Origin: Candidatus Margulisiibacteriota bacterium
Lineage (GTDB): Bacteria; Margulisbacteria; Marinamargulisbacteria; JBFWNS01
DNA length: 64,000 nucleotides
Reading direction: 5' to 3'
Assembly (NCBI GenBank): GCA_050250935.1
Contig: JBFWNS010000001.1
Coordinates: forward strand, 130,102 to 194,101
Shown: in pieces, positions 14,205 to 63,571 of the stretch
Layout of the letters: every line of letters starts with the position of its first letter
How positions within the stretch are numbered: position 1 is the stretch's first letter
The notes under the pieces: generated by a model
The model's input: the letters and a program-made list of their open reading frames with translations, nothing else
Told to the model about the DNA's origin: nothing
The model's database searches: none
Program-made: the position numbers and the translations under genes

Positions 14205-16403
14205 ATGATACTAATTGAAGAACTCGAAAAAACCCTTACAGCCGCCTACGACGAAGCCAAAACCCGTCATCACGAATTTGTGACGCTTGAACACCTGCTG
14301 TTGGCTTTAACCTTCGATCGGATTTCGGCCACACTTTTGGAAGTGTGTGGGGCCAATTTAACCACCCTTCGCCAAGACCTTCGTAGCTTTTTGGATGAAA
14401 AAATCACCGCCCTGCCCCCCCATATTCAAAAAGACCCCGAATATTCGGTGGGCTTTCAGTTTGTGTTGCAACTGGCCATTGGGCATAGCGAATCGGCCGG
14501 TAAAAATCACATTGATGCCAGCAACCTGTTGGCGGCGTTGTTTCGCGAAGAGCAATCGGCTGCGGTGTATTTTTTGAGCCAACAAGGGATCTCGCGCTTG
14601 GATGTGCTTCGGGTGATGGCCCATGGCAGTGCCAAACCCGAGGTTGAACGCACCGAAACATCCGAAGAATCGGGTGGCGCAAAGGCCCTGGAAGGCTGTT
14701 GCCTGAACCTGAACGAGATGGCCAAAACCCAGGGCTTTGACCAGCTGATTGGCCGAGACATCGAGCTGGATCACATCATCCACTGTTTGGGCCGGCGCCG
14801 AAAAAACAATCCCATTTTGGTTGGGGATGCTGGGGTGGGGAAAACCGCCTTGGCCCAAGGTCTGGCCGCTAAAATCGTGGCCGGCGATGTTCCCGACTTT
14901 TTGAAAAATGCGGTTTTGTATAGCCTCGATATGGGGGCTTTATTGGCCGGAACCCGGTACCGGGGGGATTTTGAAGAACGCCTCAAAAAAGTCCTGACCC
15001 AACTCGAAAAAGAGCCGTTTAGCATTTTGTTTATCGACGAAATTCATACCCTGATCGGTGCTGGAACCTTGGGCAACGGCAATTTGGATGCGGCCAATTT
15101 ACTCAAACCGGTGTTGTCCAGCGGAGCTCTGCGCTGCATGGGGACCACCACCCACGAAGACTATCGCCGCATTTTCGACAAAGACCAAGCCTTGTCCCGC
15201 CGCTTTCAAAAGATCTCGGTTTCTGAACCTTCCGAAACCGAAACCACGGCCATTTTGCAAGGTCTTAAACCGAAATTCGAATTGTTTCATACCGTTCGCT
15301 ACGACGACGCTGTGATGTCCCATTTGGTACAAAGCGCAGGCCGCCTTTTCCACGATCGCCGATTCCCCGACAAAGCCATTGATTTGATGGACGAGGTTGG
15401 GGTGACCCTGAAGCTTCAAAATCGTACCGACAAACACATTACGGTTGCCGATGTGGATGCGGTGCTTAAAACCCGATACCCCCATCTTTTAACCACAGCA
15501 GAACCCGACAAAAAAGACCTTAAATCCAGTTTATCTGCTGTGTTGTTTGGCCAAGACTCGGCCATAGAAACGGTTGCCGATGCTGTGCAGATTGCCCAAG
15601 CGGGTTTGCACGATCCCCAGCGGCCCCTGGGCTGTTTTTTGTTTGCAGGCCCAACAGGGGTCGGTAAAACCGAATTGGCCAAACAAACCGCCGAACACCT
15701 GGGCATGACCTTTTTACGCTTCGACATGAGCGAATATATGGAAAAACACGCCGTTGCCCGACTGATTGGGGCGCCCCCAGGCTATGTTGGCTACGAACAA
15801 GGGGGCTTGCTGACCGAAGCCGTTCAAAAATCCCCCAAATCGGTGGTTTTGCTCGACGAAATTGAAAAAGCCCACGACGATATTGCCAATATCTTGCTCC
15901 AAGTGATGGACCACGGCACCCTGACCGACACCAATGGCCGCGCCGTCAGCTTCAAAAACACCCTCCTAATTTTAACCACGAACGCCGGGGCCAAAGAAAG
16001 CCAACAAAAACCGATTGGATTCGACAAGCCCGATTTCGAGGACCGCAGCAAAGAAGCCATTGAAAAACGGTTTTCCCCGGAGCTGCGGAACCGTCTGACC
16101 GCCATTGTGACTTTTGCCCCGCTTCAAAAGGCCGTCATGACCCAAATTTTGGACAAGGAATTGCAAGTGATTGTCGCCCGCTTGGCCGAAAAAAAGGTTA
16201 TCTTTTCTCTCGATGATGCCGCCAAAACGATTTTGTTGGACAAGGGCTTTGACCCCGCCATGGGCGCAAGACCGCTTAAACGCTGCCTGGAACGGGAAAT
16301 TTTGGTTCCCCTCTCCAAAGCCGTGCTGTTTGGCCAGCTCCAAAATGGTGGAAACGCCACCTTAATCGCCCAAGAAGGCCAGCTTCGGATGAGCTACACA
16401 TGA
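14205..16403 (+). CDS. clpA: ATP-dependent Clp protease ATP-binding subunit ClpA
   Basis: Two AAA+ modules (GDAGVGKT and GPTGVGKT Walker A), N-domain; start set at ATG 14205 just after clpS stop. Confidence 0.9.
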   Translation: MILIEELEKTLTAAYDEAKTRHHEFVTLEHLLLALTFDRISATLLEVCGANLTTLRQDLRSFLDEKITALPPHIQKDPEYSVGFQFVLQLAIGHSESAGKNHIDASNLLAALFREEQSAAVYFLSQQGISRLDVLRVMAHGSAKPEVERTETSEESGGAKALEGCCLNLNEMAKTQGFDQLIGRDIELDHIIHCLGRRRKNNPILVGDAGVGKTALAQGLAAKIVAGDVPDFLKNAVLYSLDMGALLAGTRYRGDFEERLKKVLTQLEKEPFSILFIDEIHTLIGAGTLGNGNLDAANLLKPVLSSGALRCMGTTTHEDYRRIFDKDQALSRRFQKISVSEPSETETTAILQGLKPKFELFHTVRYDDAVMSHLVQSAGRLFHDRRFPDKAIDLMDEVGVTLKLQNRTDKHITVADVDAVLKTRYPHLLTTAEPDKKDLKSSLSAVLFGQDSAIETVADAVQIAQAGLHDPQRPLGCFLFAGPTGVGKTELAKQTAEHLGMTFLRFDMSEYMEKHAVARLIGAPPGYVGYEQGGLLTEAVQKSPKSVVLLDEIEKAHDDIANILLQVMDHGTLTDTNGRAVSFKNTLLILTTNAGAKESQQKPIGFDKPDFEDRSKEAIEKRFSPELRNRLTAIVTFAPLQKAVMTQILDKELQVIVARLAEKKVIFSLDDAAKTILLDKGFDPAMGARPLKRCLEREILVPLSKAVLFGQLQNGGNATLIAQEGQLRMSYT

Positions 16404-17446
16404 AGTGGCTAGGGCTGTTGGTTCTTCTTGTTTTGGTCTTTATGCTTCTGATCCTGTACCTGGGCTACCATTTTTCTGCACCGGGTTATCAGGGTGCGGT
16501 AAGCTATCACTTCAACGGCAAAACCTTTGAAAATGCAACCCCCGTTCGTACCCGATTTCTGGATGTTTTGAAATGGAAATGGACCTCTTCCCCACAGGCT
16601 TGGCCCCAACATGTGCCATTGACCTTTAAGCCCGACATTCAATACCCCATTCCCAGCAAAGCCTTTCGTCTGACCTTCATCAACCACGATACGTTTTTAA
16701 TCGAAGCCGATCACCTTCGGATTTTAACCGACCCCATTTGGTCCAAGCGGGCCAGCCCATTTTCGATGCTAGGGCCCAAACGGGTACATGATCCCGGTCT
16801 TCCCTTTTCAGAACTCCCCCCCATCGACGTTGTTTTGATCAGCCACAACCATTACGATCATATGGACATCCAAACCCTTAAGGCCCTTCAAAAACGCTGT
16901 CGGCCCTTGTTTATTACCGGTCTTGGCAATAAGGCATTTTTGATACAGCAAGGCCTGCAAAACGTGGTTGAATTGGATTGGTGGGATTCGATTCAAGTGA
17001 AGGGCTGGACCCTGACCTTTACCCCCGCCAAACATTTTTCGAGCCGGGGTTTATTTGATCGGAATCAAACGCTTTGGGGTGGATTTGTCGCAAAATCGGC
17101 CACGGGGGCAACCCTCTATTTTGCAGGAGACACGGGATTCGATCCTTTTTTTAAGGCCATTGCAACACAATTGGGCCCCATTGATGTAGCCTTATTGCCC
17201 ATCGGTGCCTACGAACCCACTTGGTTTATGAAGCCCGTACATTGCAACCCAGCAGAGGCCGTCCAAGCCCATCAATTGTTGGGTGCCAAACAAAGTTTTG
17301 GGATGCATTGGGGCTGCTTTCAGCTCACCGACGAGGCCAGAGAACAACCTTTGGCCGAACTGGCATCTGCCCTGAATCAGGCGCACATTCCCACAGCCGC
17401 CTTTAAAGTGCTTCAACCGGGGCAAACCACGCTGGTTCCGTTTTAA
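16400..17446 (+). CDS. Membrane-anchored MBL-fold metallo-hydrolase
   Basis: N-terminal TM segment; HxHxDH-type motif ISHNHYDHMD; overall resemblance to NAPE-PLD-like Zn hydrolases. Confidence 0.7.
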   Translation: MKWLGLLVLLVLVFMLLILYLGYHFSAPGYQGAVSYHFNGKTFENATPVRTRFLDVLKWKWTSSPQAWPQHVPLTFKPDIQYPIPSKAFRLTFINHDTFLIEADHLRILTDPIWSKRASPFSMLGPKRVHDPGLPFSELPPIDVVLISHNHYDHMDIQTLKALQKRCRPLFITGLGNKAFLIQQGLQNVVELDWWDSIQVKGWTLTFTPAKHFSSRGLFDRNQTLWGGFVAKSATGATLYFAGDTGFDPFFKAIATQLGPIDVALLPIGAYEPTWFMKPVHCNPAEAVQAHQLLGAKQSFGMHWGCFQLTDEAREQPLAELASALNQAHIPTAAFKVLQPGQTTLVPF

Positions 17447-29427: not shown

Positions 29428-31299
29428 ATGCGCGTAGACGTTGTGTTTAAGCAAGTCTTGCTTGCTGTTGTGTGTATGTGTTGGTCGGGGCTAGTGATGG
29501 CCCAAACCGAGCCCAGTATAGCGCTTCCCGAAACTGTGGTCAGTGCAACCAAGTTTCCAAGACTCAGTTCGCAAGTCGCCGAAGATGTGTTTGTGATCAC
29601 CTCGAAAAATATGGAAGCAGCCGGGGTTAAAAACATCAAACAAGCCTTGATGTTGGTTCCTGGCTTAACCGTTTCGGATACGGGCGGGGCAACGCCAACA
29701 ACCCTTTTCTTACATGGGTTTCAATCTTACCAAATTTTGGTCCTCAAAGACGGCATGCCCATCAACGACACCATTTCTCCGCAGCCCATTGCCTATTTGG
29801 ATTCGCTTTCCATCGATGATATTGATCGGGTCGAGGTGATGTTCAATTCCAAAAGTGTGCTCTATGGTAGCCAAGCCATGGCTGGCGTTATTCAAATTTT
29901 TTCGAATACCGACGCCAATCAGGTTCATTATGTTCAGGGCTGGGACCACGGCAAAACCTCGGCTCAACTTAGCCGGCAATTTGGCAGTGCCAAAGTCTCG
30001 TTTTCGGGCAGTTACGAAAACGATTGGCGGCAGTCTTCTTACATCAATACCAGCGAACGCGATCGCAAAGAGAGGTCTACTTTTTCGGCTTATGTTGAAA
30101 ATGACTTTGGCTTTTTTAAGGGGGCTTTCCGCTACAACAAGAACAAAGCTACTCTGGGCTTAGATCGTGCCGACTATGTCTATGTTGGCCCTGGCTATGC
30201 CGAGGTTCGCATCGACGATACCAACGACAACCTACAAACCGAACAAAATTTAACCTCCTTAAGCTTGGAAACCTCGGTTATCCCCCTCACCACCACGGTG
30301 TTACAAGGGAGCATTTCCAACATCACCCGCTTGGAACTGAACCAAGCCGATGAGGCATTGAACAGTAACGTGGTGTCTCAATTTTGGGGAGTGACCCGGC
30401 GCTTGGAACTGCGTAACGAAACCCTACTGTCTTCGGAATGGGCAGCCACCTATGGGTTTGACCTTCAAATCGAGGAAGGATCTTCGGATTATTGGCATCC
30501 GCTGTATCCCAGCTCTTTTCCAGCCCAATCGCAGGAAAGCCAAGGCTATTTTGGGCAACTGCAATACACCACGCCAGGCTTTGGGGTTTCGGCCGGGCAT
30601 CGGGTTCATATGGATCACACCCAGCACATTTTAAAAGCCTATTCTTTGGGCAGTTACTACCGGGTTGAAGCCTTGGATCTGTTGGTCAAACCCAGCATTG
30701 GCACCAGTTTCCGAGAAGCCGGCTTATTTGAGCGCTTTGATAGCTATACCGGAAACCCCGATTTTCAACCCGAAACCACCCTCTCCAAGGACCTGCTGTT
30801 GGAAAAACCCCTGGGACCCGTTGTCTTAAGCTGGCGTTGGTTTGAAAACCAGACCTCCAACCTGATTACCTATGATGATTTGAATACCTTCAAATACATC
30901 CAAAACACCGGTACCGCTATAGCAACCGGTCAAGACTATGCCCTATCCATTCGAAATCTCGGCCCGCTTCAGTTTTTAAAAGCGTCTTACACCCGTCTTT
31001 CTGCCAAAGACAAAACCATTTTGAAAACCCCAGACTGGCAGGCCAACTTAAATGGGGGATTCGTTTTCGATGCCTGGCGTTACGGTTTCGACGCTGCTTG
31101 GGTAGGCTCGCGCTTGGATTCGGCCAGCAAACCGTTGGACGCCTATTTTCAGCTTAATTTGCGCGGGGCTTATCAATGGGGCCCTCAAACGCAATTGGAA
31201 GTCATTTTGTTTAATGCCTTGAATTCCCATCACCAAGAGGTGTACGGATTTAACTCCCACGAACGCAATGTCTACTTTGGCATCAAGCAACAGTTTTAA
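29428..31299 (+). CDS. btuB: TonB-dependent outer-membrane receptor, BtuB-like (putative cobalamin transporter)
   Basis: Signal peptide, TonB-box-like ETVVSAT, plug-domain motifs, C-terminal ...GIKQQF; size (623 aa) and upstream B12 riboswitch support a BtuB-type role. Confidence 0.8.
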   Translation: MRVDVVFKQVLLAVVCMCWSGLVMAQTEPSIALPETVVSATKFPRLSSQVAEDVFVITSKNMEAAGVKNIKQALMLVPGLTVSDTGGATPTTLFLHGFQSYQILVLKDGMPINDTISPQPIAYLDSLSIDDIDRVEVMFNSKSVLYGSQAMAGVIQIFSNTDANQVHYVQGWDHGKTSAQLSRQFGSAKVSFSGSYENDWRQSSYINTSERDRKERSTFSAYVENDFGFFKGAFRYNKNKATLGLDRADYVYVGPGYAEVRIDDTNDNLQTEQNLTSLSLETSVIPLTTTVLQGSISNITRLELNQADEALNSNVVSQFWGVTRRLELRNETLLSSEWAATYGFDLQIEEGSSDYWHPLYPSSFPAQSQESQGYFGQLQYTTPGFGVSAGHRVHMDHTQHILKAYSLGSYYRVEALDLLVKPSIGTSFREAGLFERFDSYTGNPDFQPETTLSKDLLLEKPLGPVVLSWRWFENQTSNLITYDDLNTFKYIQNTGTAIATGQDYALSIRNLGPLQFLKASYTRLSAKDKTILKTPDWQANLNGGFVFDAWRYGFDAAWVGSRLDSASKPLDAYFQLNLRGAYQWGPQTQLEVILFNALNSHHQEVYGFNSHERNVYFGIKQQF

Positions 31300-32587
31300 C
31301 ACAACGCTTGCTGAAGCGCTGAACAAAAAAATTGGCCTCTACGAACTGTTTCAAATCGTCGAGGCCCTACCCGCCTTACCGGCCAGATCCGAACACATCC
31401 TCTTGGCCACCTTGCCTGGGGATGTGCACCGGCTGGGCACCCGCATTACCCAAGCTTTGCTTGAAAAGGCAGGGTGTCGGGTAGACGTGCACTGGGAAAT
31501 GACGCCCCAGGCCTTGACCCTCTATTTGGCAAACAACAACCCCACCCATATTGTGATGACCTGTTTTTTAACCGCCCAACTGGATTTTTTCGGGGCCTTG
31601 GTCCCCCAGTTGGTCCAAACACAGACTTGTTTGGTTTTGGGTGGATTTGCGTTTTCTCCCCGGACCTTGTCGACGCGATTTAGCACCTTGGCCCCTAAAA
31701 CCGTGCATCCCAAAAACGGCGTCGAAGCTGCGGGGTTTATTTTACAAGCCTGGCCCTTGCCTTGGGTTTCCAGCCTGACGTTTTCGCCAGATCTCGACAC
31801 TGATCGAAGCAAAAAATGCGCCCCGGTCGCGGTTCAAACCCCTTGCCTGCCCCATTCTTTTTCGCCCATCACCCAAACCGATTTTAACCTGGAAACCCTG
31901 TGGGATGCCATTAATCCACGAACCCTCTACAATTTGCATTTGGGCTTCAAGGGCAACCCGCATCAAGCCCAGGGGAATCCCCTGTTTACCGCAATAACAG
32001 AGCGGTTTAATCGCCTAAAACCCCTGGCACATCGGCTCTTTGAACCCCAGGCATTGTGGCAACATTTTAAAGCCAAAAGCAACCACGATCAGATTTGGGT
32101 GTATCCCGAAGCTTCGGCCCCAGTAAGCTGGGATTTCCCCCGAAAAAATGGGATTTGCCTTGCCGATTATCTGCGTCACGACACCGACGATTTTATCACC
32201 CTCATGGCTGTGACCATTGGAAAAGTCGCGGGAGACCACACCGAAACCCTGTTTCAGCAAGGCCGCTTTACCGACATGCTGTGCTGGCATGCCCTGACCG
32301 TTCAAAGTGCCGAAGCTTTGGCCGAAACCGTTCATGCCCAGTTGCGGCGTATGCACGGTGACGAAGACAGCCCCCCCGATGCCCAATCCCTGTGGGATGC
32401 CCGCTACACCGGCAAACGCTACAGCTTTGGCTACGCGGCTTGCCCCGATTTACGAGGACAGGCCCTATTTTTTAAGTTGCTAAAACCCGAAACCATCGGG
32501 ATTCATCTTTCCGAATCGATGATGATGAACCCCGAAGCTTCGGTGAATGCTCTGGTGTTTTACCACCCCGCTGCTGCCTATTTTTGA
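31268..32587 (+). CDS. Stand-alone cobalamin-binding protein resembling the B12-binding and AdoMet reactivation domains of methionine synthase (no catalytic barrels)
   Basis: N-terminal half has the B12-binding DxHxxG motif (LPGDVHRLG); C-terminal half ends ...RYSFGYAACPDL...IGIHLSESMMMNPEASVNALVFYHPAAAYF, the hallmark of the MetH activation domain. Start overlaps the receptor gene by 32 nt; no signal peptide. Confidence 0.7.
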   Translation: MSTLASSNSFNTTLAEALNKKIGLYELFQIVEALPALPARSEHILLATLPGDVHRLGTRITQALLEKAGCRVDVHWEMTPQALTLYLANNNPTHIVMTCFLTAQLDFFGALVPQLVQTQTCLVLGGFAFSPRTLSTRFSTLAPKTVHPKNGVEAAGFILQAWPLPWVSSLTFSPDLDTDRSKKCAPVAVQTPCLPHSFSPITQTDFNLETLWDAINPRTLYNLHLGFKGNPHQAQGNPLFTAITERFNRLKPLAHRLFEPQALWQHFKAKSNHDQIWVYPEASAPVSWDFPRKNGICLADYLRHDTDDFITLMAVTIGKVAGDHTETLFQQGRFTDMLCWHALTVQSAEALAETVHAQLRRMHGDEDSPPDAQSLWDARYTGKRYSFGYAACPDLRGQALFFKLLKPETIGIHLSESMMMNPEASVNALVFYHPAAAYF

Positions 32588-32852
32588 ATGGGGCTTGCGT
32601 CGCCCCCTCAACCGAAGCAAGTTCGGTTGAGCCTCCCCCTCACGCTGGCGCTGGGCCTTCGGCCATGGTCTGTTTTTTTGTACAGAGTCCTTTAGGCCCC
32701 TGCGGGGAGGGAAGACAAACTTGCTTTGGCTTCCCGATTCAAAAACGCTTGCCGTTTTTGTTTATAATTATACTGCCCCTGCGGGGAGGAAAGACAAACT
32801 TGCTTTGGCTTCCCGATTCAAAAACGCTTGCCGTTTTTGTTTATAATTTAAA
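32588..32852. repeat. Mosaic intergenic repeat cluster: ~135-bp element shared with 57019-57154 plus a ~79-bp near-perfect tandem duplication
   Basis: 32591-32725 is near-identical to 57019-57154, including GC hairpins and a hairpin+T-run; 32696-32769 and 32775-32848 are tandem copies differing at about one position. Confidence 0.8.
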
Positions 32853-32854
32853 CC

Positions 32855-35716
32855 CTACCGCCAATAGCGCCCTACGGTGATGTTGATTGTCTGATGGTCG
32901 GTGTCGTCGTTGAGCATGTACGAGGCGTTGCTGCCAAAGCTGAAGAGGCGGACGCCCATCATGTCGGCCCAAATATCCCCATCCATGACTTCAAAAAACT
33001 CACCTGTGCCATCGAAGGCCACATCGATTTTGTCCGTTTGACCCGAGCTGACCAAATCGTACCAAACCACCAATCGATAGCTGGAATTCCGGGACAAAAT
33101 GCTGTCGGTTTTGGTAAACGTGGGTAAGGTATAGCTGGATTGACGATTGCCGGCCAATACCGACTCCATAGATCCAAGACTGTACACCATCGACTGACTG
33201 GATGGTCCCGTCACGGGGGTTTTGGCACCGGCAGAGAAGAAATAGTCCGACCAAACACCGGCATCGGATCCACCCATTTTAAACAAGCCCACTTTCCATG
33301 TACCGGTTTGACCTACGCCAACCCGAGAACTTAGCGTCGATGGGAAGGTTACAGTCCCGTTCAACCCAATGCTCCACGGTGTGGCAGCCCCAACTTTAAA
33401 GCTGGTTCGGCTTTCAGCGCCTTGCCAAACCACACGTCCAGACGATTGCTCCACCAAGACGGGCATGATGTTGAGTTCGTAGGTGGTTTCGTAGTTGTTC
33501 CCGATATCGCGAACCGTACGGGCCAACTGCTGTTTCAACTGGAAGGAATTCCCTTGGATAAAGCGATTGTCTTGCCAAGAGCTCCAAATAAATTTCCATT
33601 TGTAGTTATCACCACTGGAATCCCAGCTTCCGGAGGGATTAAAGGTATTGTTGTTCCAATCCACTTTAATGGCCGAGAGCCCCAGGTTGATGGCATAGGC
33701 CAAGAAATAGCCATCGGGTACCGTACCAGTCGGTGTATCCCATTGCAGGTTGGGTTGGGCTTTATCCGTATCAACATCCACATCCATGGTTTGCATTTCA
33801 AACGTGTCGTCCCAGCCTGTGGCTTGTACTCTGGCCATGTCCATGCCCCGTGGGTTCCGCCAATTAATCAGGCCAATGCTGGGTTTCAAAATTCTGACCG
33901 TTGTTGATGTCAACACATTGTTGTCGGCATCCAGCACCTTAATCGTGGCCGTTCCCGAAATGTAATCCGTCACAAAGGTGGGGGTAAAGTCTCCAGAAAA
34001 ACCTGTATTTTGATAAGGCGAGATGATCCAGGTGACATCGAAAGGATTATCCAAGGCCTTTTTGGATTGAGCAGCATTAAATGCCGAAATGGCAACCAGG
34101 GATTGAGACGATCTTAACGCTTGGGGATTCCCAATCGATTGGGGGTTATTGCCAGCAGAAACGCGTTGGTATTCCACCGTTTGCGTTCCGGTCGAGGTGG
34201 GGTATTCCAAAACCACACGGGCAGCCGCTGCAGAAGCGTTTTCTGCATAAAGAACCACGCGAGAATCCAAGGCATCGGTGGGTTGCCAGTTGTTGTCCGA
34301 TACTTGTCTATAGGCCCGAACAGGAACCAAAGAGGTTTCAACAATGTAATAGCGCCCGGTTTGAATGCTTACAAAATTAATGGCCTTAAGCAATACAAAC
34401 GGATCAAAAACGGGGCCATCGTGGGTAAAAAACTCATTTCGAACCATCAGCGGCAAAGAACTTCCATCCAATAATCCTGCTTGAATCATGACGGCAATGG
34501 CCTGAGGAACCGTCATGGTTTGGCTTTCGGTAATGGGCAATGTCCACCGGTTGTTTTTGGGGAAAATAACCCGCATGGCCGGCATCGTCGTGGTATCGGA
34601 CGTCGCGGTGGCATCGTAAAAGGCGTATAACTTTCTAAGTTGTGAATTATCTTGATTCATAACCCCCAACATTTCTGCCTTAACATTAGCAACCGACCAA
34701 TAGTCCGACTTTAACTCCCCTTCTGGCAAACTCTCGTTAAACGCCTGGGCAAACTCGGCAATGGTTACCGTTACACCATTCAAATAGCCCGTTGCAAATT
34801 GCTCAATAAAAAATTCTGGTGGCACGCCAACCGAAGATCCGTCTTTGGATCCGCCACCACTTTTACCCCCAAAAATGGACCGAATAATTTGTTTGGCACG
34901 ATCTAGGGTTAAGGTCGCATTAACCTGAGAATCCAAAGCGGCTTGTTGGGCCAATTTTCGTAAATCATCGTCGTTTTGCAACTGCTCGACGATTAGTTTT
35001 TGGGTATCGTCGGGCGCAGGAAACACGTCTTTATTCACCGTAGCATCGGTGGTTGGCTTGACCGGAGACACCCGCTGAATTTCCCCAGAGCTGAGTTTTG
35101 AATTGATGGTATCGGTGATTTTTTGTGTCAATTCGTCGGACAAATCCCCGCTGAATTTATTCCCGTTTCCTTTGGCTACTTTTTCGACCACATAATCCAC
35201 AATAGCCCGGGTCTTTTCAGAGACGTTGGCCGACACGGCCGTTTCTCCGCTTTTAACGTTCACATAGGTGTCCATGCGCAACACGTTTTGGGCTCCGGAA
35301 GAATCTGTCCCTGTTTTGACAATCCCGACCACATATTTTTTACCGTCTGCTATATTTTTGAATTCGTAAGCGCCATCCACCACATTGGCTGTAATGCCCG
35401 TGGGAATAACAGTGCCATCAGATCCAATTTCATATAAAATGGCTGTCCCATCCGACAAAGTCGAAATGTCCGACAAATGTTTTGTGAAGGCTTGAGACAA
35501 CCTTTTGGACGACGACAAACTGCTAATCGAAGACACCGGATTGGTAATCCCCACCTGGCTTTGATCTTGAGCCGATGCAATGACATAGCCACTTAAGGTG
35601 GTGGCCCCCGCATAACTGGTGGTCGAGGTTGTCGACGTGGTGGATTCCGATGCTTTTCCACAGCCCCCCAAAGCCAAAATGAATATCAGCGGAACCGCTG
35701 CAAACCACGTTTTCAT
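32855..35716 (-). CDS. Large predicted lipoprotein of unknown function
   Basis: Start set at MKTWF (ATG 35716, GGAGGG RBS 7 nt upstream); lipobox LALGGC followed by Ser/Thr-rich linker; ~950 aa with no recognised catalytic motif. Confidence 0.6.
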   Translation of the reverse strand: MKTWFAAVPLIFILALGGCGKASESTTSTTSTTSYAGATTLSGYVIASAQDQSQVGITNPVSSISSLSSSKRLSQAFTKHLSDISTLSDGTAILYEIGSDGTVIPTGITANVVDGAYEFKNIADGKKYVVGIVKTGTDSSGAQNVLRMDTYVNVKSGETAVSANVSEKTRAIVDYVVEKVAKGNGNKFSGDLSDELTQKITDTINSKLSSGEIQRVSPVKPTTDATVNKDVFPAPDDTQKLIVEQLQNDDDLRKLAQQAALDSQVNATLTLDRAKQIIRSIFGGKSGGGSKDGSSVGVPPEFFIEQFATGYLNGVTVTIAEFAQAFNESLPEGELKSDYWSVANVKAEMLGVMNQDNSQLRKLYAFYDATATSDTTTMPAMRVIFPKNNRWTLPITESQTMTVPQAIAVMIQAGLLDGSSLPLMVRNEFFTHDGPVFDPFVLLKAINFVSIQTGRYYIVETSLVPVRAYRQVSDNNWQPTDALDSRVVLYAENASAAAARVVLEYPTSTGTQTVEYQRVSAGNNPQSIGNPQALRSSQSLVAISAFNAAQSKKALDNPFDVTWIISPYQNTGFSGDFTPTFVTDYISGTATIKVLDADNNVLTSTTVRILKPSIGLINWRNPRGMDMARVQATGWDDTFEMQTMDVDVDTDKAQPNLQWDTPTGTVPDGYFLAYAINLGLSAIKVDWNNNTFNPSGSWDSSGDNYKWKFIWSSWQDNRFIQGNSFQLKQQLARTVRDIGNNYETTYELNIMPVLVEQSSGRVVWQGAESRTSFKVGAATPWSIGLNGTVTFPSTLSSRVGVGQTGTWKVGLFKMGGSDAGVWSDYFFSAGAKTPVTGPSSQSMVYSLGSMESVLAGNRQSSYTLPTFTKTDSILSRNSSYRLVVWYDLVSSGQTDKIDVAFDGTGEFFEVMDGDIWADMMGVRLFSFGSNASYMLNDDTDHQTINITVGRYWR

Positions 35717-35876
35717 CTCTGTCCCTCCATTTTTGAAACTGTTTCGTTCATTATACATACTTCTTGCCCCTTTCCCAAAATTTTGAGGTTTTAAACCTGT
35801 TTTTTTAATCGAAAATTAGTTTTCTATTTGTGAAGGGGGATTCAAAAATGGTATTCTGATCCTCACTTTTACCCCT

Positions 35877-47968: not shown

Positions 47969-48223
47969 TTACCGATAGACATCTTTTCGATGTCTTACAC
48001 GCAATACAGTAATTGTGGCTTCCTCAACGGTATAAACCAACCTGTAATCGCCTTCTCGAAGGCGGTAGGTATGCAGAGAACCGCTGAGTTTTTTACTGTC
48101 CGTTGGGAAAGGGTTATCGATTAATTCTAAAAGACGCTTATCAAATCGCCTCAGCATCAAAGCAGGCAACTCTTCAAGCTCTTTTTGGGCCTTTTTGCTA
48201 ATAAAAAGACTAAATTTTTCCAT
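47969..48223 (-). CDS. Type II toxin, RelE/ParE family
   Basis: C-terminal YRLREGDYRLVY...VLRVRHRKDVYR is a classic RelE/ParE signature; start set at MEKFSL (ATG 48223, AAGG upstream), overlapping the antitoxin stop. Confidence 0.75.
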   Translation of the reverse strand: MEKFSLFISKKAQKELEELPALMLRRFDKRLLELIDNPFPTDSKKLSGSLHTYRLREGDYRLVYTVEEATITVLRVRHRKDVYR

Positions 48224-48419
48224 GCGCCTTAAGCTGTTCTCGAAATTTGTCGTAAGAGATTTTCTCATCCTCTCTACGCTCTGCAACAACAGCCAAGTCT
48301 TCTAAATCCTCCATGAGGGTTTCATAGCTTTCAATGGGCAACACCACAAAGGCCCGATTACCATCGGCATCCAATACAAACTGGGGGGCTGTTTTAGACG
48401 ACTCTTTTTTCTTTTTCAT
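48210..48419 (-). CDS. Type II antitoxin, Phd/YefM-like
   Basis: 69 aa; FVVLPIESYETLMEDLEDLAVVAERRED pattern; immediately upstream of and overlapping the toxin. Confidence 0.65.
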   Translation of the reverse strand: MKKKKESSKTAPQFVLDADGNRAFVVLPIESYETLMEDLEDLAVVAERREDEKISYDKFREQLKAHGKI

Positions 48420-51366: not shown

Positions 51367-51735
51367 ATGAAACCAGAACGCGTAGCGGTGATTGGCGCCT
51401 CTGACAAACCCGACCGCTATTCCTACATGGCCATCGAGCGCCTCCGCAACCATGGCCATGTGGCGTTGCCCGTACACCCCAAGTTAAAAACCGTTCAAGG
51501 CCTGGCCGTATATCCCAGCCTTGCCCAAGTCCCCCACCCCATCGATACCATCACCCTGTACGTTAACGCCGAGAAATCCGCCGCGATGGCCGCAGACCTC
51601 ATCGCCGCAAACCCCCGCCGCGTAATCTTTAACCCCGGTACCGAAAGCCCTGCTCTAGAAGCCACTCTCCAAAACGCCGGCATCCAAACGATGGAAGCCT
51701 GCACGCTGGTCCTGCTTTCTACGAAGCAATTTTAA
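51367..51735 (+). CDS. CoA-binding domain protein (YccU-like)
   Basis: 122 aa; VAVIGASDKPDRYSY...VHPK...G...YPSL pattern of CoA_binding_2 proteins. Confidence 0.65.
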   Translation: MKPERVAVIGASDKPDRYSYMAIERLRNHGHVALPVHPKLKTVQGLAVYPSLAQVPHPIDTITLYVNAEKSAAMAADLIAANPRRVIFNPGTESPALEATLQNAGIQTMEACTLVLLSTKQF

Positions 51736-52321
51736 TCACAAACGCACAGCGTTTGTGATGGATTGTATACACAAACGACAAGCGTTTGTGGGTCGCAGCG
51801 TTGAAGTAAATTCAACGCCGCTCCCGCTGCGCGGCCTCCGTTCCAGCCTTTTCCAGAGAAACGGATACTCCGTTACAGGGATAATGGGGCTAAAAAAATG
51901 GATTATAAGCTCGATTGCCAGCGAAGCGAAGCAGTTTCAGATTGTATTCACAAACGCACAGCGTTTGTGGGTCGGAACATTGAAGCAAGTTCAATCTTCC
52001 TCCCGCTGCGCGGCTTCTGTTCCAGCTTTTTCCAGCGAAACTGTTCCTCCGTTCCAGAGATAAGGGGGCTAAAAAAATGGATTATAAACCGATTGCCAGC
52101 GAAGCGAAGCAATCCCAAACCGCGCTAAGCGTTAAGTGTTGGTCTTACCCCCTCCAATCGGGAGGGGGCAGGGGGTGGGGAACCTTATTAGCGAAATGTC
52201 CGAAACCCCATCCAGCCGAAGGCTGCGTGGGTGAGTTTTGAGCGTAAAAGCACAGGTGGGGGGTCCTAGGGGGGCACCTCGCGCAGCGTGGTTCCCCCCT
52301 AGGCGTTAAGCGACGCTTACC
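51736..52321. repeat. Convergent-intergenic repeat cluster: two ~179-bp tandem units with CACAAACG-N5-CGTTTGTG palindromes, followed by GC-rich hairpins
   Basis: Units at ~51761-51939 and ~51940-52118; each has a palindrome, a TTGAA-N5-TTCAA hairpin whose loop varies between copies, and GGGGCTAAAAAAATGGATTATAA; then hairpins ccccctcc/ggagggggg (52147-52170) and cctagggggg...cccccctagg (52264-52303). Confidence 0.8.
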
Positions 52322-53380
52322 CTACCACTCCAAAGTCCCAGTCTGATACTCCTTCACCCGTCCTTCAAAGAAGTTCACTTCAATCATATTCCCTTGGGTC
52401 AATTCATCGATCCAAGGATACGGATTCGTCGCATTCCAAACCTTAGGCAAGCCAATGGCCGCCAAGCGTTGGTCCCCAATAAATTGGAGATACTCTTTCA
52501 TGTTATCGCCAGTAATCCCCAAAATGCCATCACCAATGCAAGACAATCCCCATTCATATTCCATTTGAACGGCATCTTTAACGTTTTGGATAATGAGATC
52601 TTGGAGCTCTTGGGTCCACAACTCGGGCTGCTCTTCTCGAATGCCGTTAATGATGTTCACAAACAAAGCCACGTGCAAATCTTCGTCGCGGTTGATGAAC
52701 TGGATCATCTCTTTGCTGCCGGGCATTTTGTTATTTCGGCCAAAATTGTAGAAAATTAAGAAGGCGCTAAAGAAAAACACCCCTTCCAAAATCAGGTTGG
52801 TGGTGCAGGCTTCTAGGAACAACTTGTCGTTATCCAAAGTGCCCGTTTTGAAGCCAGGAAAGGCAATTTTAGAGACTGATCTTAAAACCGTTTTGTTTTT
52901 GTAGAACAACCCTTTGTCTTTACGGTACAGCCCGTACACTTCTTCAGCATCAAAGCCCAAGGCTTCGATCATACAAGAATAGGAATCAACGTGAAGCGCC
53001 TCTTCGTAGATTTGCCTGGCCAAAGCCAAACAAACCTCTGGGCTGGTGATTTGGGGTTTGATCAATTCAGACAAGGTCTTGGTGAGCAATCCATCCAAAT
53101 TGGAGGCAAAGGCCAAGGCGCGCATGAAAGCATTCTTTTCGGTTTCGGTGAGCTTGTTGTTGTACCATTGCTCGTAGTCGGTTTGGAAAGGAATTTCTTC
53201 GGCAACCCAGTTGTTCCGTTGCATTTTTTTGAAAATGTCCCGGGCCCAAGGGTGTTTGAGGGGGCTGGCTTGCATCAATCCATCGTCAAACCCGTTGATG
53301 ATGCGGCGTTTGTTGATGATGTCGGCGTTGCTCATGGGGGAGTCTGTAAATTCGCCTTGAAAAAGTTCACTAATAGACAT
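52322..53380 (-). CDS. nrdB: Ribonucleoside-diphosphate reductase beta subunit (class I)
   Basis: 352 aa; diiron ligand pattern (E...EALH...E...EGVFFF...EDLH). Confidence 0.9.
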   Translation of the reverse strand: MSISELFQGEFTDSPMSNADIINKRRIINGFDDGLMQASPLKHPWARDIFKKMQRNNWVAEEIPFQTDYEQWYNNKLTETEKNAFMRALAFASNLDGLLTKTLSELIKPQITSPEVCLALARQIYEEALHVDSYSCMIEALGFDAEEVYGLYRKDKGLFYKNKTVLRSVSKIAFPGFKTGTLDNDKLFLEACTTNLILEGVFFFSAFLIFYNFGRNNKMPGSKEMIQFINRDEDLHVALFVNIINGIREEQPELWTQELQDLIIQNVKDAVQMEYEWGLSCIGDGILGITGDNMKEYLQFIGDQRLAAIGLPKVWNATNPYPWIDELTQGNMIEVNFFEGRVKEYQTGTLEW

Positions 53381-53398
53381 GGTTTACCTCGCTTTTTT

Positions 53399-56134
53399 TT
53401 ATTGACAGGCTTCGCAATCGGGATCGTTGATCAAACAGGCTTTGGGCATTTCGGCAGGAACCGGTTGTTCTACCGCAGGCTTTTCGGCGACCACGGCATC
53501 TGTCACCGACATTTTGGTGATCTGAGACGCCCCCAAGGTTCGGAGGTAGTAGGTGGTTTTAAGACCTTGTTCCCAAGCGGCCATGTAAATGTCGCTGAGG
53601 GCTTTCCCGCTGGTGGTGTTGCTGAATACGTTGGTAGAGGCCGCTTGATCGATCCATTTGGACCGTCTTGCGGCTGCCCCAATAATCCATTTCCCATCGA
53701 TTTCGAAGGTTTCTTTGTACTTGGCTTTGATGGCCACGGGAATCTCTTCAATGTCTTGAATAGACCCATTGTAGAGCTTGATTTTGGCCACCATGTCGGG
53801 ATTCCACAATCCCAGTTTTTCCAATTCGTCGATCAGATAGCGGTTGATCACGATGAAGTTTCCAGACAAATTTTCTTTCATGTAGATGTTTTTATAAACC
53901 GGTTCTGTGCAGGGATAAACACCGGAAATATTGGCAATGGTGGCGGTGGGGGCGATGGCCATGGTGTTGGAGTTTCTCATGCCGTGTTGGGCAACCTGAG
54001 CTTTCAAAGCAGCCCAATCCAAGCGTTGAGCTTTATTCACTTGGATGGCTTGTCCCCGTTGCTCTTCCAAAACCATTAAGGTGTCGAGCGGGAAAAGCCC
54101 ACGGGACCATTTGCTGCCGTCATAGGAAGGATAAGTGCCCCGTTCTTGGGCCAACAAGGCACTGGCCTTAATGGCATAATAAGAAATCATTTCCATGGAT
54201 TGATCGGCAAACTCAAGGTTGGCTTCAGAATCAAAGGCAATGCCCACTTGGAACAAGGCATCTTGATAGCCCATCAAACCCAACCCGACCGCACGGTGAC
54301 GGAAGTTGGCTTTTTCGGCTTCTGGAATGGGGTAAAAATTGTTATCGATGACGTTGTCGAGCATGCGAATGCCCACTTCCACAGTCTTGGCGATTTTGGC
54401 TTCATCCAGGGCCCCATCTTTGATCATTCTGGCCAAGTTTAGGCTAGCCAAGTTACAAACCGCTGTTTCGTCTTTCGAGGTGTTCAAGGTGATTTCGGTA
54501 CACAGGTTGGACGAGTGAATCACCCCACAATGGTCTTGGGGATTACGAACGTTGGCCGCGTCTTTGAAGGTCATCCAGGGATGGCCTGTTTCGTAGAGCA
54601 TGGTCAACATTTTTCGCCACAGATCCAAGGCTTTCACTTTTTTGGCTCGGGGCAAATTTGCAGCTTCGTATTCCACATATTTGGCTTCGAAGGCCTTGCC
54701 GTACAGATCGTGCAATTCGGGAACATCGGCTGGGCAGAAGAAGGTCCAGTCTTGATCTTGTTGAACACGTTTCATGAACAAATCTGGAATCCAGCTGGCC
54801 GTATTAACATCGTGGGCGCGGCGGCGTTCGTCGCCGGTATTCTTTTTCAGTTCTAAAAATTGTTCGTAATCCAAGTGCCACATTTCCATGTAGGCGCACA
54901 TGGCCCCTTTGCGTTTACCCCCTTGGTTCACGGCCAGGGCGACATCGTTGAAAATTTTGATAAACGGAATGACCCCTTGGGACATGCCGTTGGTGCCTTT
55001 GATTTTAGACCCTGTTGCCCGAACATAGGTAAAGTCGGATCCAATCCCTCCGGCCCATTTGCTGAGGTTGGCGTTGTCGGCATAGAGTTTAAAGATGCTG
55101 TTGAGCGAATCGCCGGCCAAATTGAGGTAGCAAGAGCTCATTTGGCTGTGGGTGGTACCGCTGTTGAATAAGGTTGGGGTTGAAGAAACCAAGTCCATTT
55201 GAGACAACACGTTGTAGAACTCGATGGCGCGGGCTTCTTTATCGGCTTCTTTAAGCGCCAAGCCCATGGCCACACGCATCCAGAACCATTGAGGCAATTC
55301 GTAGATATTTTTTTCCAGGGATCGATCGCGAAGGAAATAACGGTCGATTAAAATCTGAACCCCCAAATAATAAAACAACTTGTCTCGTTCTGGGTTCAAG
55401 GCTGCCGCCAATTTTTCCAAATCGAAGCCAGCTAGCTCGGGATTCAGCATTTCGTAAGAAATCCCTTTGGCCACATAATCCGCAAATTTTTCTTTATACA
55501 ACTCGGCCAAGCGCGGACTATTCATGGGCTCGCCCAAAATTTTGCCGTACAACTCGTTGCTGATGGCGATGCGGGAGGCCAGGTGGGCATAATCGTAGTG
55601 CAATTCGATGCGTTCTCTGGCGGCGGTTAGTACCAAGAGGTCGATTTCGTGCTTAGGGATGTTGTCGTAGACCTGCTTGGTGACCGCTTCGACCATTTCG
55701 GTGATGGACACGCGCATGAGGTCTGGGGCCAATTGGCGCAGCTGCTCTTCGATGGATTTGGAATCGAAGATAACGGTTTCGGTTTCGCTGACTTTGACCT
55801 GAAGTTGCTTCTCGCGGATTTTGTCCAACACCTTTTGTTGGCGAACCTGTTTGTGCATCTCCCGATACACAATGTAGTTGCGGGCAATTTTGTGGTAGCC
55901 CGCTTTCATGAGCATTTCTTCAACCACGTCTTGAACCGATTCCACGATGGTGGTGTCGTTGTTCCCAGACCTGGCGATCATCGCATAGACCACTTCTTCG
56001 GTTAGTTTGGCCACAGCCGCTGTATCCACTTTGTTTTCGGACAAAAAGGCCTTCTCGATGGCACTGAAAATTCGAGCTTTATCGAAAGGAACTTTTTGAC
56101 CGTTGCGTTTGATGATGTAGTGGATTAGGGCCAT
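53399..56134 (-). CDS. nrdA: Ribonucleoside-diphosphate reductase alpha subunit (class I, with ATP-cone)
   Basis: 911 aa; N-terminal ATP-cone (IIKRNGQKVPFDKARI), active-site region, C-terminal Cys pair (CEAC). Confidence 0.9.
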   Translation of the reverse strand: MALIHYIIKRNGQKVPFDKARIFSAIEKAFLSENKVDTAAVAKLTEEVVYAMIARSGNNDTTIVESVQDVVEEMLMKAGYHKIARNYIVYREMHKQVRQQKVLDKIREKQLQVKVSETETVIFDSKSIEEQLRQLAPDLMRVSITEMVEAVTKQVYDNIPKHEIDLLVLTAARERIELHYDYAHLASRIAISNELYGKILGEPMNSPRLAELYKEKFADYVAKGISYEMLNPELAGFDLEKLAAALNPERDKLFYYLGVQILIDRYFLRDRSLEKNIYELPQWFWMRVAMGLALKEADKEARAIEFYNVLSQMDLVSSTPTLFNSGTTHSQMSSCYLNLAGDSLNSIFKLYADNANLSKWAGGIGSDFTYVRATGSKIKGTNGMSQGVIPFIKIFNDVALAVNQGGKRKGAMCAYMEMWHLDYEQFLELKKNTGDERRRAHDVNTASWIPDLFMKRVQQDQDWTFFCPADVPELHDLYGKAFEAKYVEYEAANLPRAKKVKALDLWRKMLTMLYETGHPWMTFKDAANVRNPQDHCGVIHSSNLCTEITLNTSKDETAVCNLASLNLARMIKDGALDEAKIAKTVEVGIRMLDNVIDNNFYPIPEAEKANFRHRAVGLGLMGYQDALFQVGIAFDSEANLEFADQSMEMISYYAIKASALLAQERGTYPSYDGSKWSRGLFPLDTLMVLEEQRGQAIQVNKAQRLDWAALKAQVAQHGMRNSNTMAIAPTATIANISGVYPCTEPVYKNIYMKENLSGNFIVINRYLIDELEKLGLWNPDMVAKIKLYNGSIQDIEEIPVAIKAKYKETFEIDGKWIIGAAARRSKWIDQAASTNVFSNTTSGKALSDIYMAAWEQGLKTTYYLRTLGASQITKMSVTDAVVAEKPAVEQPVPAEMPKACLINDPDCEACQ

Positions 56135-56340
56135 AACTAACTCTCCTTAAAAAATAAAAAATGGATACGAGAAAATGGATACAAGAAAACCCAAAATGGG
56201 CTCTGCCATCTGTACTAAAAAACAATAAAATCAACTTGTAAGTTTGCGAGTTTTCCCTAAGTAGTAGGGGTGACTAACTCAACCTGAAAATTAGGTTTTT
56301 TTGAAGAAGATTTGGGTACCCTGAAAATGGGGTGAAATGC

Positions 56341-56372
56341 ATTATACACCCACGCTTCTTCGGTCCGTCAAC
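56341..56372 (-). promoter_or_regulatory. Candidate sigma-70-type promoter for nrdA (extended -10 TGTATAAT with TTGACG -35)
   Basis: On the nrdA sense strand: TTGACG, about 19 nt spacer, TGTATAAT; about 200 nt upstream of the nrdA start. Spacer is longer than optimal, so speculative. Confidence 0.3.
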
Positions 56373-56508
56373 AGAAGATTTCATGGATTGTTTATGGTCT
56401 ATTTTTGAGACTTGATCTCAATAAAAATCAGGATTCTTGCTTGATCAAAACCCTCGACTTGGGTTAGGGTTAAACCCGAACGTTATCCCCCGCAAAAAAG
56501 GACATTTT

Positions 56509-57003
56509 ATGGCTGACCCCTCGTTTGATATCGCCTCTAAAATTGACTGGCAAGAAATCGTCAACGCCGTTAACCAAACCGAGCGAGACATCGCCAATCG
56601 CTACGACCTTAAAGACAGCGGCGCCACCATCGAGCAAAAGCAAGCGGACTCTAAAATTTTTATTGAAGCCCCAGACGACTATAAAGTAAACGCCATCTAT
56701 GAACTCTTTGTTCAAAAGCTCATCAAGCGTGGGATTTCAGCCAAAGCCGTTAAAGCCGGCGAAATCAAATCCGCCTTGGGTGGCCGAGCTAAAATGGAAA
56801 TAACGGTTCAACAAGGCATTTCCAAAGAAAAAGCCAAAGAAATCACAAAAGACGTCAAGGACAGCGGCTTGAAAGTTCAAACCCAAATTCAGGACGATCA
56901 GATTCGGGTATCTGGCAAAAAGATCGACGATCTACAGGCCGTTATGAAGGTCTTAAAAGCCAAAGACTACGACATTCATATTGATTTTATTAATTATAGA
57001 TAG
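56509..57003 (+). CDS. yajQ: YajQ-family nucleotide-binding protein
   Basis: Start set at MADPSFDIASKIDWQEIVNAV (ATG 56509, AAGGA upstream), the typical YajQ N-terminus. Confidence 0.8.
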   Translation: MADPSFDIASKIDWQEIVNAVNQTERDIANRYDLKDSGATIEQKQADSKIFIEAPDDYKVNAIYELFVQKLIKRGISAKAVKAGEIKSALGGRAKMEITVQQGISKEKAKEITKDVKDSGLKVQTQIQDDQIRVSGKKIDDLQAVMKVLKAKDYDIHIDFINYR

Positions 57004-57310
57004 GGGCATCTATAGATGGGGGCTTGCGTCGCCCCCTCAACCGAAGCAAGTTCGGTTGAGCCTCCCCCTCACGCTGGCGCTGGGCCTTCGGCCTGGCTTG
57101 TCTTTTTTGTACAGGGTCCTTTAGGCCCCTGCGGGGAGGAAAGTCGAACTTGCTCCAAGTGCGGGCGAGGAGGTTGAATTTAGTTCAACCTCCTCCCCAC
57201 AAAACCTGTGGTTTTGTGATTATAATAAGCCCGTTTTTTAGTACAGGGCCTTTTAGGCCCCTGCAGGCGAACAGCTTTGGATTTACTCCAAAGCTGCGAC
57301 ACACAAACGC
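57004..57310. repeat. Convergent-intergenic repeat cluster sharing a ~135-bp element with 32591-32725 and palindrome modules with 51736-52118
   Basis: 57019-57154 near-identical to 32591-32725; further GTACAGGG...TTTAGGCCCCTGC module and a CACAAACG...GTTTGTG palindrome at ~57299-57325. Confidence 0.8.
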
Positions 57311-63484: not shown

Positions 63485-63495
63485 TGGATTACCCT

Positions 63496-63571
<76 letters not shown>

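Follow-up and report, generated by a model that had tools for sequence, protein, structure and literature searches.

We analysed a window of 64,000 nt from the uncultured Candidatus Margulisiibacteriota bacterium (assembly GCA_050250935.1, contig JBFWNS010000001.1, positions 130,102-194,101, forward strand) and found that repeats of one family fill three of its convergent intergenic regions, near 32, 51.7 and 57 kb. These repeats are probably a lineage-specific family of non-coding, modular, hairpin-forming interspersed elements resembling BOX elements and bacterial interspersed mosaic elements (BIMEs). Each cluster is a composite of two inward-facing halves, an A-type module and one to three U-type units. 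The sequence is new; the kind, as known from BOX and from BIMEs and their repetitive extragenic palindromic (REP) sequences, is ordinary.

Self-comparison of the window showed that positions 32590-32725 and 57019-57154, which lie 24 kb apart, are 92% identical over 136 nt without a gap (blastn E 6e-48). The near-identity reported in an initial annotation of the window therefore stands, and so do its perfect 10-bp stem, found at both loci, and its GGCC-TTC-GGCC hairpin followed by a T-run, which is extended to 8 pairs at 57 kb. The gene map, built from open reading frame (ORF) lists and gene tables of the independent Logan assembly, likewise agrees that both loci lie between the end of a plus-strand gene and the end of a minus-strand gene. 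A recent tandem duplication had also been claimed: 32696-32769 and 32775-32848 are indeed identical at 73 of 74 positions (99%), with a period of 79 nt and a 5-nt linker, ATACT. The annotation had counted two loci only. Self-comparison revealed a third cluster at 51729-52111, whose units are opposite in orientation to those at 32 and 57 kb, as well as further units at 57159-57330. Within the third cluster ~173 nt are duplicated in tandem (51761-51933 and 51940-52111, units U2 and U3) with 85% identity and a period of 179.

Alignment of the copies (alignments A1-A3) gives the units one layout when the 51.7-kb cluster is read on the plus strand and the other two, at 32 kb and 57 kb, on the minus strand. 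A box, ATTRTAWWC, is followed by a first hairpin (hp1), a 4-nt spacer, a second hairpin (hp2) and a C-rich tract, CYCCC(C)GC. The 8-bp stem of hp1, CACAAACG/CGTTTGTG, closes a 5-nt loop; hp2 has a stem of 11-12 bp, which varies between copies, and the loop GYAAR. Full units add a GC hairpin, hp3 (CAGGGGCC-TAAA-GGaCCCTG), and an A-run, and an internal inverted pair, AGCAAGTTCG..CCTCCCC / GGGGAGG..CGAACTTGCT, is present. We built a covariance model, R1, from five units and scanned it over the window. The five seeds score 81-89 bits, and beyond them the model matches only unit U5a, the fragment U1 and a hairpin of the A-module. The unit family comprises seven copies at three loci: U1-U3 at 51.7 kb (inverted), U4 and U5a at 57.2 kb, and U6 and U7 at 32.7 kb. 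A 28-nt, 79% match to the hp1 region at 16887-16914 was dismissed as chance; it lies inside a metallo-beta-lactamase-fold gene (16400-17446) and gives no R1 match.

The 79-nt tandem copy corresponds to U7 and U6. It had been described as an appendage of the 135-nt element, but it copies a two-hairpin unit (box, hp1 and hp2) that is separate from that element and faces it. Judged by sequence, the 136-nt piece is in turn a module of its own, opposed to the units and distinct from the 79-nt unit. Its left end is sharp (32590 = 57019), in agreement with the breaks in the Logan contigs; after hp3 it reaches its right end (32725/57154), which lies in an hp2 loop, the first one in the units opposite. 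Only the hp2-type hairpin of the A-module runs opposite to the units, and R1 matches it on the opposite strand at both loci (E 0.004 and 0.014; 32607-32631 scores 15.8 bits, E 0.014). The A-module at 57019-57108 folds at -42.4 kcal/mol on the plus strand and -39.1 on the minus strand. At 32683-32702 hp3 has a G-U pair on the minus strand that becomes an A-C mismatch on the plus strand, and the unit with hp3 at 32 kb folds at -28.9 kcal/mol (z score -3.1) on the minus strand versus -23.4 (z -0.3) on the plus strand.

The third cluster may have an opposing half as well. A candidate A'-module follows the gene for the ribonucleotide reductase (RNR) small chain on the minus strand; its layout is analogous to that of the A-module and its sequence likeness is weak. 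Its 10-bp hairpin CCTAGGGGGG...CCCCCCTAGG (52258-52302, minus) lies ~20 nt past the RNR small-chain stop, and a Logan contig (L149) ends at 52273, 30 nt into this hairpin region, which has no second exact copy in the window; the hairpin is probably another multicopy module. In the same spacer, 52146-52190 holds a hairpin, CCCCCTCC-AATC-GGGAGGGGG, followed by G-tracts, GGGGGCAGGGGGTGGGG, that are G-quadruplex-like on the plus strand.

The placement of the clusters is narrow. The window has 10 convergent junctions, seven of which overlap or leave 22 nt or less. Only three long convergent gaps exist (267, 586 and 306 nt), and repeats fill each of them from stop codon to stop codon. Clusters thus occur at 3 of 10 convergent junctions versus none of ~44 divergent or co-directional ones (Fisher p 0.005). 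None of the seven units or the two A-modules reaches into a gene beyond its last codons, and modules begin 0-10 nt from, or across, the stop codon of the upstream gene. The box of U6 starts 8 nt past the TAG (32855-32857) of gene 32855-35758, and the last 7 codons (IVNTNT) of the sodium:dicarboxylate (SDF) symporter gene, with its TAG (57310-57312), lie within the box and hp1 of U4. This is a very compact genome that leaves canonical terminators little room. Seven of the 10 convergent junctions do without the element and have almost no spacer, so the element is not a general requirement for gene ends here.

Margulisbacteria are commonly placed near Cyanobacteria/Melainabacteria, and the RNR small chain is at most 86% identical to its counterparts in Marinamargulisbacteria and groundwater metagenome-assembled genomes (MAGs), which makes the lineage Marinamargulisbacteria-like. 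We used these RNR small-chain relatives to fetch related loci; in 372 kb of them neither blastn nor R1 found a family member. The relatives close their RNR operon with a plain hairpin-plus-T terminator. Synteny beyond that operon is not conserved, so there is no orthologous spacer to compare. The 967-aa protein facing the 32-kb cluster matches only its own MAG copy, to which it is 100% identical, and one 40% homologue, and that 40%-identical orthologue has a convergent neighbour 40 nt away. Absent from relatives and from most junctions, the clusters look, on comparison of sequences, like lineage-specific additions and not like obligatory gene-end signals.

We examined the assembly, as an error behind the tandem copy was a possibility that the initial annotation had raised against itself. 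MAG assemblies can mis-join or miscount short tandem repeats, and the two 79-nt copies differ at one base. The same reads (run SRR27751816), assembled independently by Logan (k=31), give contigs that match the window at 100% identity and end 29-30 nt inside the repeats. Contig L147 ends at 32619, with the A-module starting at 32590, and L148 starts at 32819, with the unit ending at 32848. The 30-mers 32590-32619 and 32819-32848 occur exactly twice each in the window, so breaks at 32619 and 32819 are what the window sequence, tandem copy included, predicts for a de Bruijn graph; with one copy only, a branch at 32819 would require a further copy elsewhere. U4 and U5a (57125-57331) are intact within L144. 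That the tandem copy is an artefact is accordingly unlikely, and we give very little credence to assembly error as the source of that copy or of whole clusters. The other breaks carry further information. L149 covers 52273-57047, L144 ends at 57125 and the contig of L148/L150 ends at 51788. The 30-mers at 57125, 51759 and 52273 are unique in the window, so the breaks at 57125, 51788 and 52273 have no exact partner there, which suggests, but does not prove, that further copies exist elsewhere in the genome or sample.

The initial annotation had also left room for an element confined to two loci with no conservation of structure. Besides the third locus, the stems tell otherwise, since they stay paired. 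The consensus fold predicts both hp1 and hp2, with double changes in 11 of 22 pairs. Whereas hp1 is nearly invariant, with two compensated variants, hp2 occurs as six different hairpins in which 10 of 11 pairs are changed on both sides. Pairing in hp2 is preserved in 93.9% of cells versus 66% in shuffles and 50% or less with the 3' partner slid, although these hairpins were picked for being hairpins at equivalent positions, which somewhat inflates the figures. Full units fold much more stably than shuffles (z -3.1 to -5.4). Folding of each module, proposed earlier as a check, thus came out in favour of a structure conserved between copies.

Such covariation might also arise if the clusters served the host. 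The main rival to a family of interspersed repeats is that they are host-selected RNA modules of the 3' untranslated region (3'-UTR) and not selfish DNA: transcribed with the upstream gene, their stop-proximal hairpins and an exposed CCUCCCC, which is anti-Shine-Dalgarno-like, would act on translation termination, ribosome rescue, mRNA decay or termination, and the hairpin covariation would reflect selection on RNA. The strongly covarying hp2 stems, the conserved GYAAR loops and flanking tracts, and the start of the halves at 0-10 nt from or over the stop codon, in the orientation of the gene they follow, favour it. Liang, Rudd and Deutscher reportedly found in 2015 that REPs within about 15 nt of the stop codon lower expression in E. 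coli. Of five modules, four fold slightly better on the sense strand, which runs with the upstream gene, and one is tied, as would fit G-U pairs on the transcribed strand. However, G-U and A-C combinations in the stems number 2 versus 2, too few to pick the transcribed strand, and the folding asymmetry favours sense only weakly. The common orientation is automatic, unit number varies by recent duplication, seven of 10 convergent pairs in the window manage without the element, as do relatives and the distant orthologous locus, and the functions of the genes flanking the clusters are unrelated to each other. We consider host function of this kind unlikely, though worth keeping in mind.

A bolder reading, to which we assign a smaller chance still, is that the units are substrates of a structure- and strand-specific machinery. 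Candidates are a single-strand transposase of the Y1/HUH type that uses a new hairpin code, and an RNA-binding factor whose targets are the 3'-UTR hairpins near the stop codon, on either side of the anti-Shine-Dalgarno-like CCUCCCC. Sequence would identify hp1 and the GYAAR loop; the hp2 stem would be recognised by its shape alone. If true, it would explain why hp2 stems are nearly all different yet always paired, and it would add a new element or regulatory class in the Margulisbacteria lineage.

Returning to the interspersed repeats, we examined whether they double as bidirectional terminators, as had been proposed. At 57079-57097 on the plus strand, 8 pairs (6 of them GC) are followed by TTGTCTTTTTT (tail TTGTCTTTTT); this GC-rich stem directly before a U-run has the form of an intrinsic (Rho-independent) terminator, and no other terminator-like site between 40 and 60 kb is as strong. 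In the 32-kb copy the core stem has 4 bp, T7 starts 8 nt downstream, and the terminator scan makes no call. No hairpin followed by a T-run was found on the minus strand of the clusters, where hairpins precede A-rich or mixed sequence (hp3, then TAC and A7). The T-run sits between two different hairpins and is preceded by its hairpin on the plus strand only, so the bidirectional part of the proposal is not supported. The AT-rich hp1 with TTTATAATT also scores terminator-like on the plus strand, but with 3 GC pairs only, and across the window terminator-like sites are not enriched over shuffles. From its sequence the A-module makes a convincing candidate for a one-directional terminator at 57 kb and a weak, doubtful one at 32 kb.

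The box could instead be an outward-facing promoter. On the anti-unit strand the seven boxes read TATAAT (3), TACAAT (3) or TAAAAT (1), that is TAYAAT or TAAAAT, like a -10 hexamer, and antisense transcription from each unit would enter the neighbouring gene at its 3' end. Correia elements, which are mobile, carry promoters in a similar manner. A sigma-70 scan found no promoter-like site in any cluster, the sequence 17 nt upstream is hp1 (CACAAA), which is unlike TTGACA, and no extended -10 (TGn) is present. A cleavage or target site or a spacer would account for an AT-rich box equally well, and we regard promoter activity as highly improbable.

The repeats create ORFs, among them the 98-aa ORF 32584-32880, which was called spurious from the start. 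It has a TTG start, no Pfam match and no homologue in a 5.8-billion-protein collection, and the call is upheld. We asked the same of small peptides, for instance type I toxin-like ones, encoded by anti-unit TTG ORFs (MNLLQRCDPQTLVVCVYN..., MDLLQSCDTQTLCVCVYN..., MLWLPDSKTLAVFVYN...). ORFs of 27-41 aa share a frame in U2, U3, U4 and U7, with a 26-aa stretch in U6, and GGAG-like tracts precede three of four distinct ORFs (GGGAG/GGAGG 4-9 nt upstream of TTG in U2, U3 and U6/U7). Against this, the starts are all TTG and lie at differing hairpin positions, no stop or length is conserved, and the peptides are not hydrophobic helices. Their likeness (MNLLQxCDPQTLxVCVYN...) tracks the palindromic DNA of hp1, and where they vary, the substitutions are paired and compensatory, for which a peptide has no need. 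The repeats translated in six frames gave no match in the same protein collection, nor was there a Pfam match. The palindrome-tracking likeness, the lack of a conserved stop and the lack of a homologue led us to reject coding, which is extremely improbable.

We searched for known families. A scan of the window at Rfam gathering thresholds returned tRNA-Thr only, permissive Rfam scans of the three clusters reached at most 21.8 bits versus thresholds of 34-218, and plasmid and phage collections gave no match. The exact hp3 pattern GTACAGNGYCYTTTAGGCCCCTGC has no match in 185,579 species-representative genomes and none in Joint Genome Institute (JGI) metagenome contigs, neither of which includes the source MAG. 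A loose hp1 pattern, ATTDTAWWCAMAAAMNNNNNNNKTTTKTG, which is of low complexity, gave at least 120 single AT-rich chance matches in metagenomes, none with hp2.

The initial annotation had assigned the element to a REP/BIME-like family or to one like miniature inverted-repeat transposable elements (MITEs). What stands is a family of non-coding mosaic repeats, rich in hairpins and dispersed over convergent gene ends; the MITE hallmarks and the GTAG of REPs were not found. No outer terminal inverted repeat (TIR) or target-site duplication (TSD) was seen, in what is a weak test with two or three copies, and the copies lack defined ends common to all, a comparison that is likewise weak with two copies. 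Like REPs, the repeats are extragenic palindromes mostly at 3' ends; no GTAG stands by hp1 or hp2, the box being ATTRTAWWC. REPs are presumed to act as stabilisers or attenuators at mRNA 3' ends. REP/BIME elements and REPINs (REP doublets) of Enterobacteria and Pseudomonas share with our clusters extragenic palindromes at gene 3' ends and mosaics with linker motifs, and tandem arrays and compensatory stem changes occur among them (PMC3116915, PMC3337134); tandem REP arrays have been described (PMC3116915). Compared with these, our units are bigger, each ~70-100 nt long with two or three hairpins that differ from one another. The U units stand in direct tandem (periods 79 and 179), whereas REPs alternate in inverted orientation in BIMEs and form symmetric pairs in REPINs. 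REP/BIME elements and REPINs are mobilised by REP-associated tyrosine transposases (RAYTs), and the window contains no RAYT.

Non-autonomous derivatives of IS200/IS605 (palindrome-associated transposable elements, PATEs) are moved as single strands by Y1 transposases. The likeness lies in polarity, absence of TIRs, different hairpins near the ends, conserved short motifs beside the hairpins, and preservation of structure over sequence. However, no TnpA or TnpB was found nearby, and the end hairpins are unlike each other, whereas IS608-type ends resemble each other.

By analogy the architecture is closest to that of pneumococcal BOX. BOX has the composition boxA-(boxB)n-boxC with a variable tandem count of boxB (PMC3049150). 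The BOX elements of S. pneumoniae, with relatives in S. suis, are composite, modular, non-coding and interspersed, with distinct end modules and a tandemly variable internal module, stem-loops predicted on transcription, a bias to convergent genes and a tandem number that shifts by gain and loss (PMC3049150). Here too end modules accompany an internal module in variable number, with two units in each of the clusters at 32 and 57 kb and, at 51.7 kb, a partial unit besides two full ones, in the order A-module, hp3, then (hp2 + hp1 + box) x 1-3. There is no sequence relationship to BOX, the phylum is another, the module repeated here has two hairpins and a stem that covaries, and a terminal inverted repeat of the boxA/boxC type was not found. 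The A-module is closest to SPRITE, a dispersed stem with a U-rich tract that is strongly enriched near coding-sequence 3' ends between convergent genes and may be a co-opted terminator (PMC3049150); 57019-57108 is analogous. Unlike SPRITE with its 18-bp duplex, the A-module places three hairpins ahead of the T-run and its GC stem is short (4-8 bp), with poor terminator geometry in the 32-kb copy. In its working the family would resemble REP/BIME clusters, from which it departs in lacking the GTAG and the alternating inverted REPs. BOX, RUP and SPRITE are over-represented between convergent genes, which their authors read as tolerated parasitic insertion (PMC3049150).

How such a family could have arisen may be pictured as follows. 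The 92% identity of modules 24 kb apart suggests spread between loci, which may have occurred by a trans-acting enzyme or by recombination. The repeats would colonise the few places that a compact genome tolerates, where promoters and operons stay undisturbed, and slippage or unequal exchange would raise their number locally, given the tandem copies with periods of 79 nt (99% identity) and 179 nt (85%). Hairpins would be kept because a single-stranded form, either DNA in mobilisation or 3'-UTR RNA, must fold. The GC hairpin and U-run of the A-module would end the plus-strand gene as a side effect, which is credible at 57 kb and doubtful at 32 kb, and the stacked stem-loops probably protect both convergent mRNAs from 3' exonucleases. 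Termination and stabilisation probably proceed in this way, to judge from the anatomy of the clusters and from REP, BOX and SPRITE (PMC3049150, PMC3116915).

Several points weigh against an interspersed, mobile family. Copies were counted in about 71 kb of the source genome, and a neighbouring 69-kb Logan contig is uninterrupted by repeats, so density is uneven. No transposase, RAYT or other mobile-element domain appeared among the scanned ORFs of the window (Pfam, Logan tables), and with no definable TIR or TSD, mobility is something we only infer. The hp2 stems are too different for simple recent copying, a pattern that also fits RNA selection at the level of the host, and the hp2 pairing figures are inflated as stated. 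In addition, any inward-facing composite in a convergent spacer has halves co-oriented with their upstream genes automatically, which deprives that feature of independent weight.

If confirmed genome-wide, the repeats would give Margulisiibacteriota a described family of small interspersed repeats; nearly all that is known of this candidate phylum comes from MAGs and single-cell genomes. They have practical effects: every surrounding Logan contig ends in them, so that they break short-read assemblies; they create spurious ORFs (32584-32880; 51755-52063 and, from the U2/U3 duplication that also gives rise to the former of these two, 51898-52128); and they rewrite the last codons or stops of real genes (SDF symporter, CoA-binding protein). 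As an example they are clean: in this very compact genome convergent genes mostly touch or overlap, and wherever a long spacer separates them it consists of inserted repeats. The strongly covarying hairpin is a handle for finding the enzyme or factor that reads the repeats. The finding opens no long-standing question.

Table 1. Repeat modules, flanking genes and convergent junctions, in window coordinates.
Feature	Position	Strand	Remarks
MetH-like B12-binding/activation-domain protein gene	31268-32587	+	upstream gene of the 32-kb cluster
A-module, small hairpin GGGGC-TTGCGTC-GCCCC	32590-32606	+	3 nt past the TGA of gene 31268-32587; identical at 57019-57035
A-module, hp2-type hairpin, 10-bp perfect stem CTCAACCGAA (32607-32616)/TTCGGTTGAG (32622-32631), loop GCAAG	32607-32631	+	recurs at 57036-57060
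C-rich tract CCTCCCCC	32632-32639	+	directly after the hp2-type hairpin of the A-module
GGCC-TTC-GGCC hairpin (32654-32664), 8-nt spacer, T7 (32673-32679)	32654-32679	+	weak terminator-like site
hp3, CAGGGGCC-TAAA-GGACTCTG, then TAC and A7	32683-32702	-	3 copies in the window
U7: box ATTATAAAC, hp1 CAAAAACG-GCAAG-CGTTTTTG, AATC, hp2 GGGAAGCCAAA-GCAAG-TTTGTCTTCCC, CCTCCCCGCAGG	32699-32768	-	R1 88.8 bits
U6: tandem duplicate of U7, truncated before hp3	32778-32847	-	R1 87.3 bits
967-aa protein gene, no Pfam domains, locus tag AB7F28_00780	32855-35758	-	facing gene of the 32-kb cluster
CoA-binding gene	51367-51735	+	plus-strand gene before the 51.7-kb cluster
U1: box and hp1 only; box ATTTTAATC holds the TAA stop (51733-51735) of the CoA-binding gene	51729-51761	+	R1 23.4 bits, E 4e-5
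U2: core 51762-51831 with box, hp1, hp2 GCAGCGTTGAA-GTAAA-TTCAACGCCGC, CTCCCGC; then ~100-nt tail with A-run	51762-51933	+	R1 89.4 bits
U3: core 51941-52010	51940-52111	+	R1 85.5 bits; tandem copy of U2
Candidate A'-module after the RNR small-chain gene: GCGTCGC hairpin, 10-bp hairpin CCTAGGGGGG...CCCCCCTAGG, C-rich tract, CAGCC-TTC-GGCTG	52200-52320	-	
YajQ/DUF520 gene	56437-57003	+	upstream gene of the 57-kb cluster
Hairpin TATAGAT-AGGGGC-ATCTATA	56995-57014	+	contains the TAG stop (57001-57003) of the YajQ/DUF520 gene; directly before the A-module
Second A-module: small hairpin, hp2-type hairpin 57036-57060, C-rich tract, 8-pair GC hairpin 57079-57097, then TTGTCTTTTTT	57019-57108	+	
hp3 (57112-57131), CCTCCCC and half an hp2-type hairpin	57112-57154	-	57154 is the right limit of the 136-nt homology
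U5a: box ATTATAATC, hp1 CACAAAAC-CACAG-GTTTTGTG, hp2 with 12-bp perfect stem GAGGAGGTTGAA/TTCAACCTCCTC, loop CTAAA	57159-57226	-	R1 48.7 bits, E 1.6e-13, unseeded
U4: box ATTGTAAAC, hp1, hp2 GCAGCTTTGGA-GTAAA-TCCAAAGCTGT, then second hp3 copy and A-run (to about 57230)	57261-57330	-	R1 81.2 bits; z -5.3
Sodium:dicarboxylate (SDF) symporter gene	57310-58677	-	facing gene of the 57-kb cluster
Short convergent junctions	8959/8982, 13121/13125, 17446/17443, 26346/26343, 39063/39058, 47967/47969, 59260/59233		

Other features of the window were recorded. The MetH-like gene before the 32-kb cluster is the second of two at 29428-32587: a TonB-dependent receptor gene (Plug domain) and, with a 32-nt overlap, the gene of a protein that has only the B12-binding and activation domains of methionine synthase. 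The two may be a cobalamin-related pair; upstream of them no cobalamin riboswitch reached the Rfam threshold. At the left edge a 2965-aa ORF without a recorded Pfam match (contig L145, 10962-19859) runs off the window on the minus strand (window <1-2721). The tRNA-Thr (CGT) lies at 63495-63570, and contig L144 begins inside it (63524), so that part of it is multicopy or branched in the read graph. Adjacent genes for a RelB-like antitoxin and a ParE toxin, as marked by Pfam in the Logan tables, occupy 47969-48419 on the minus strand.

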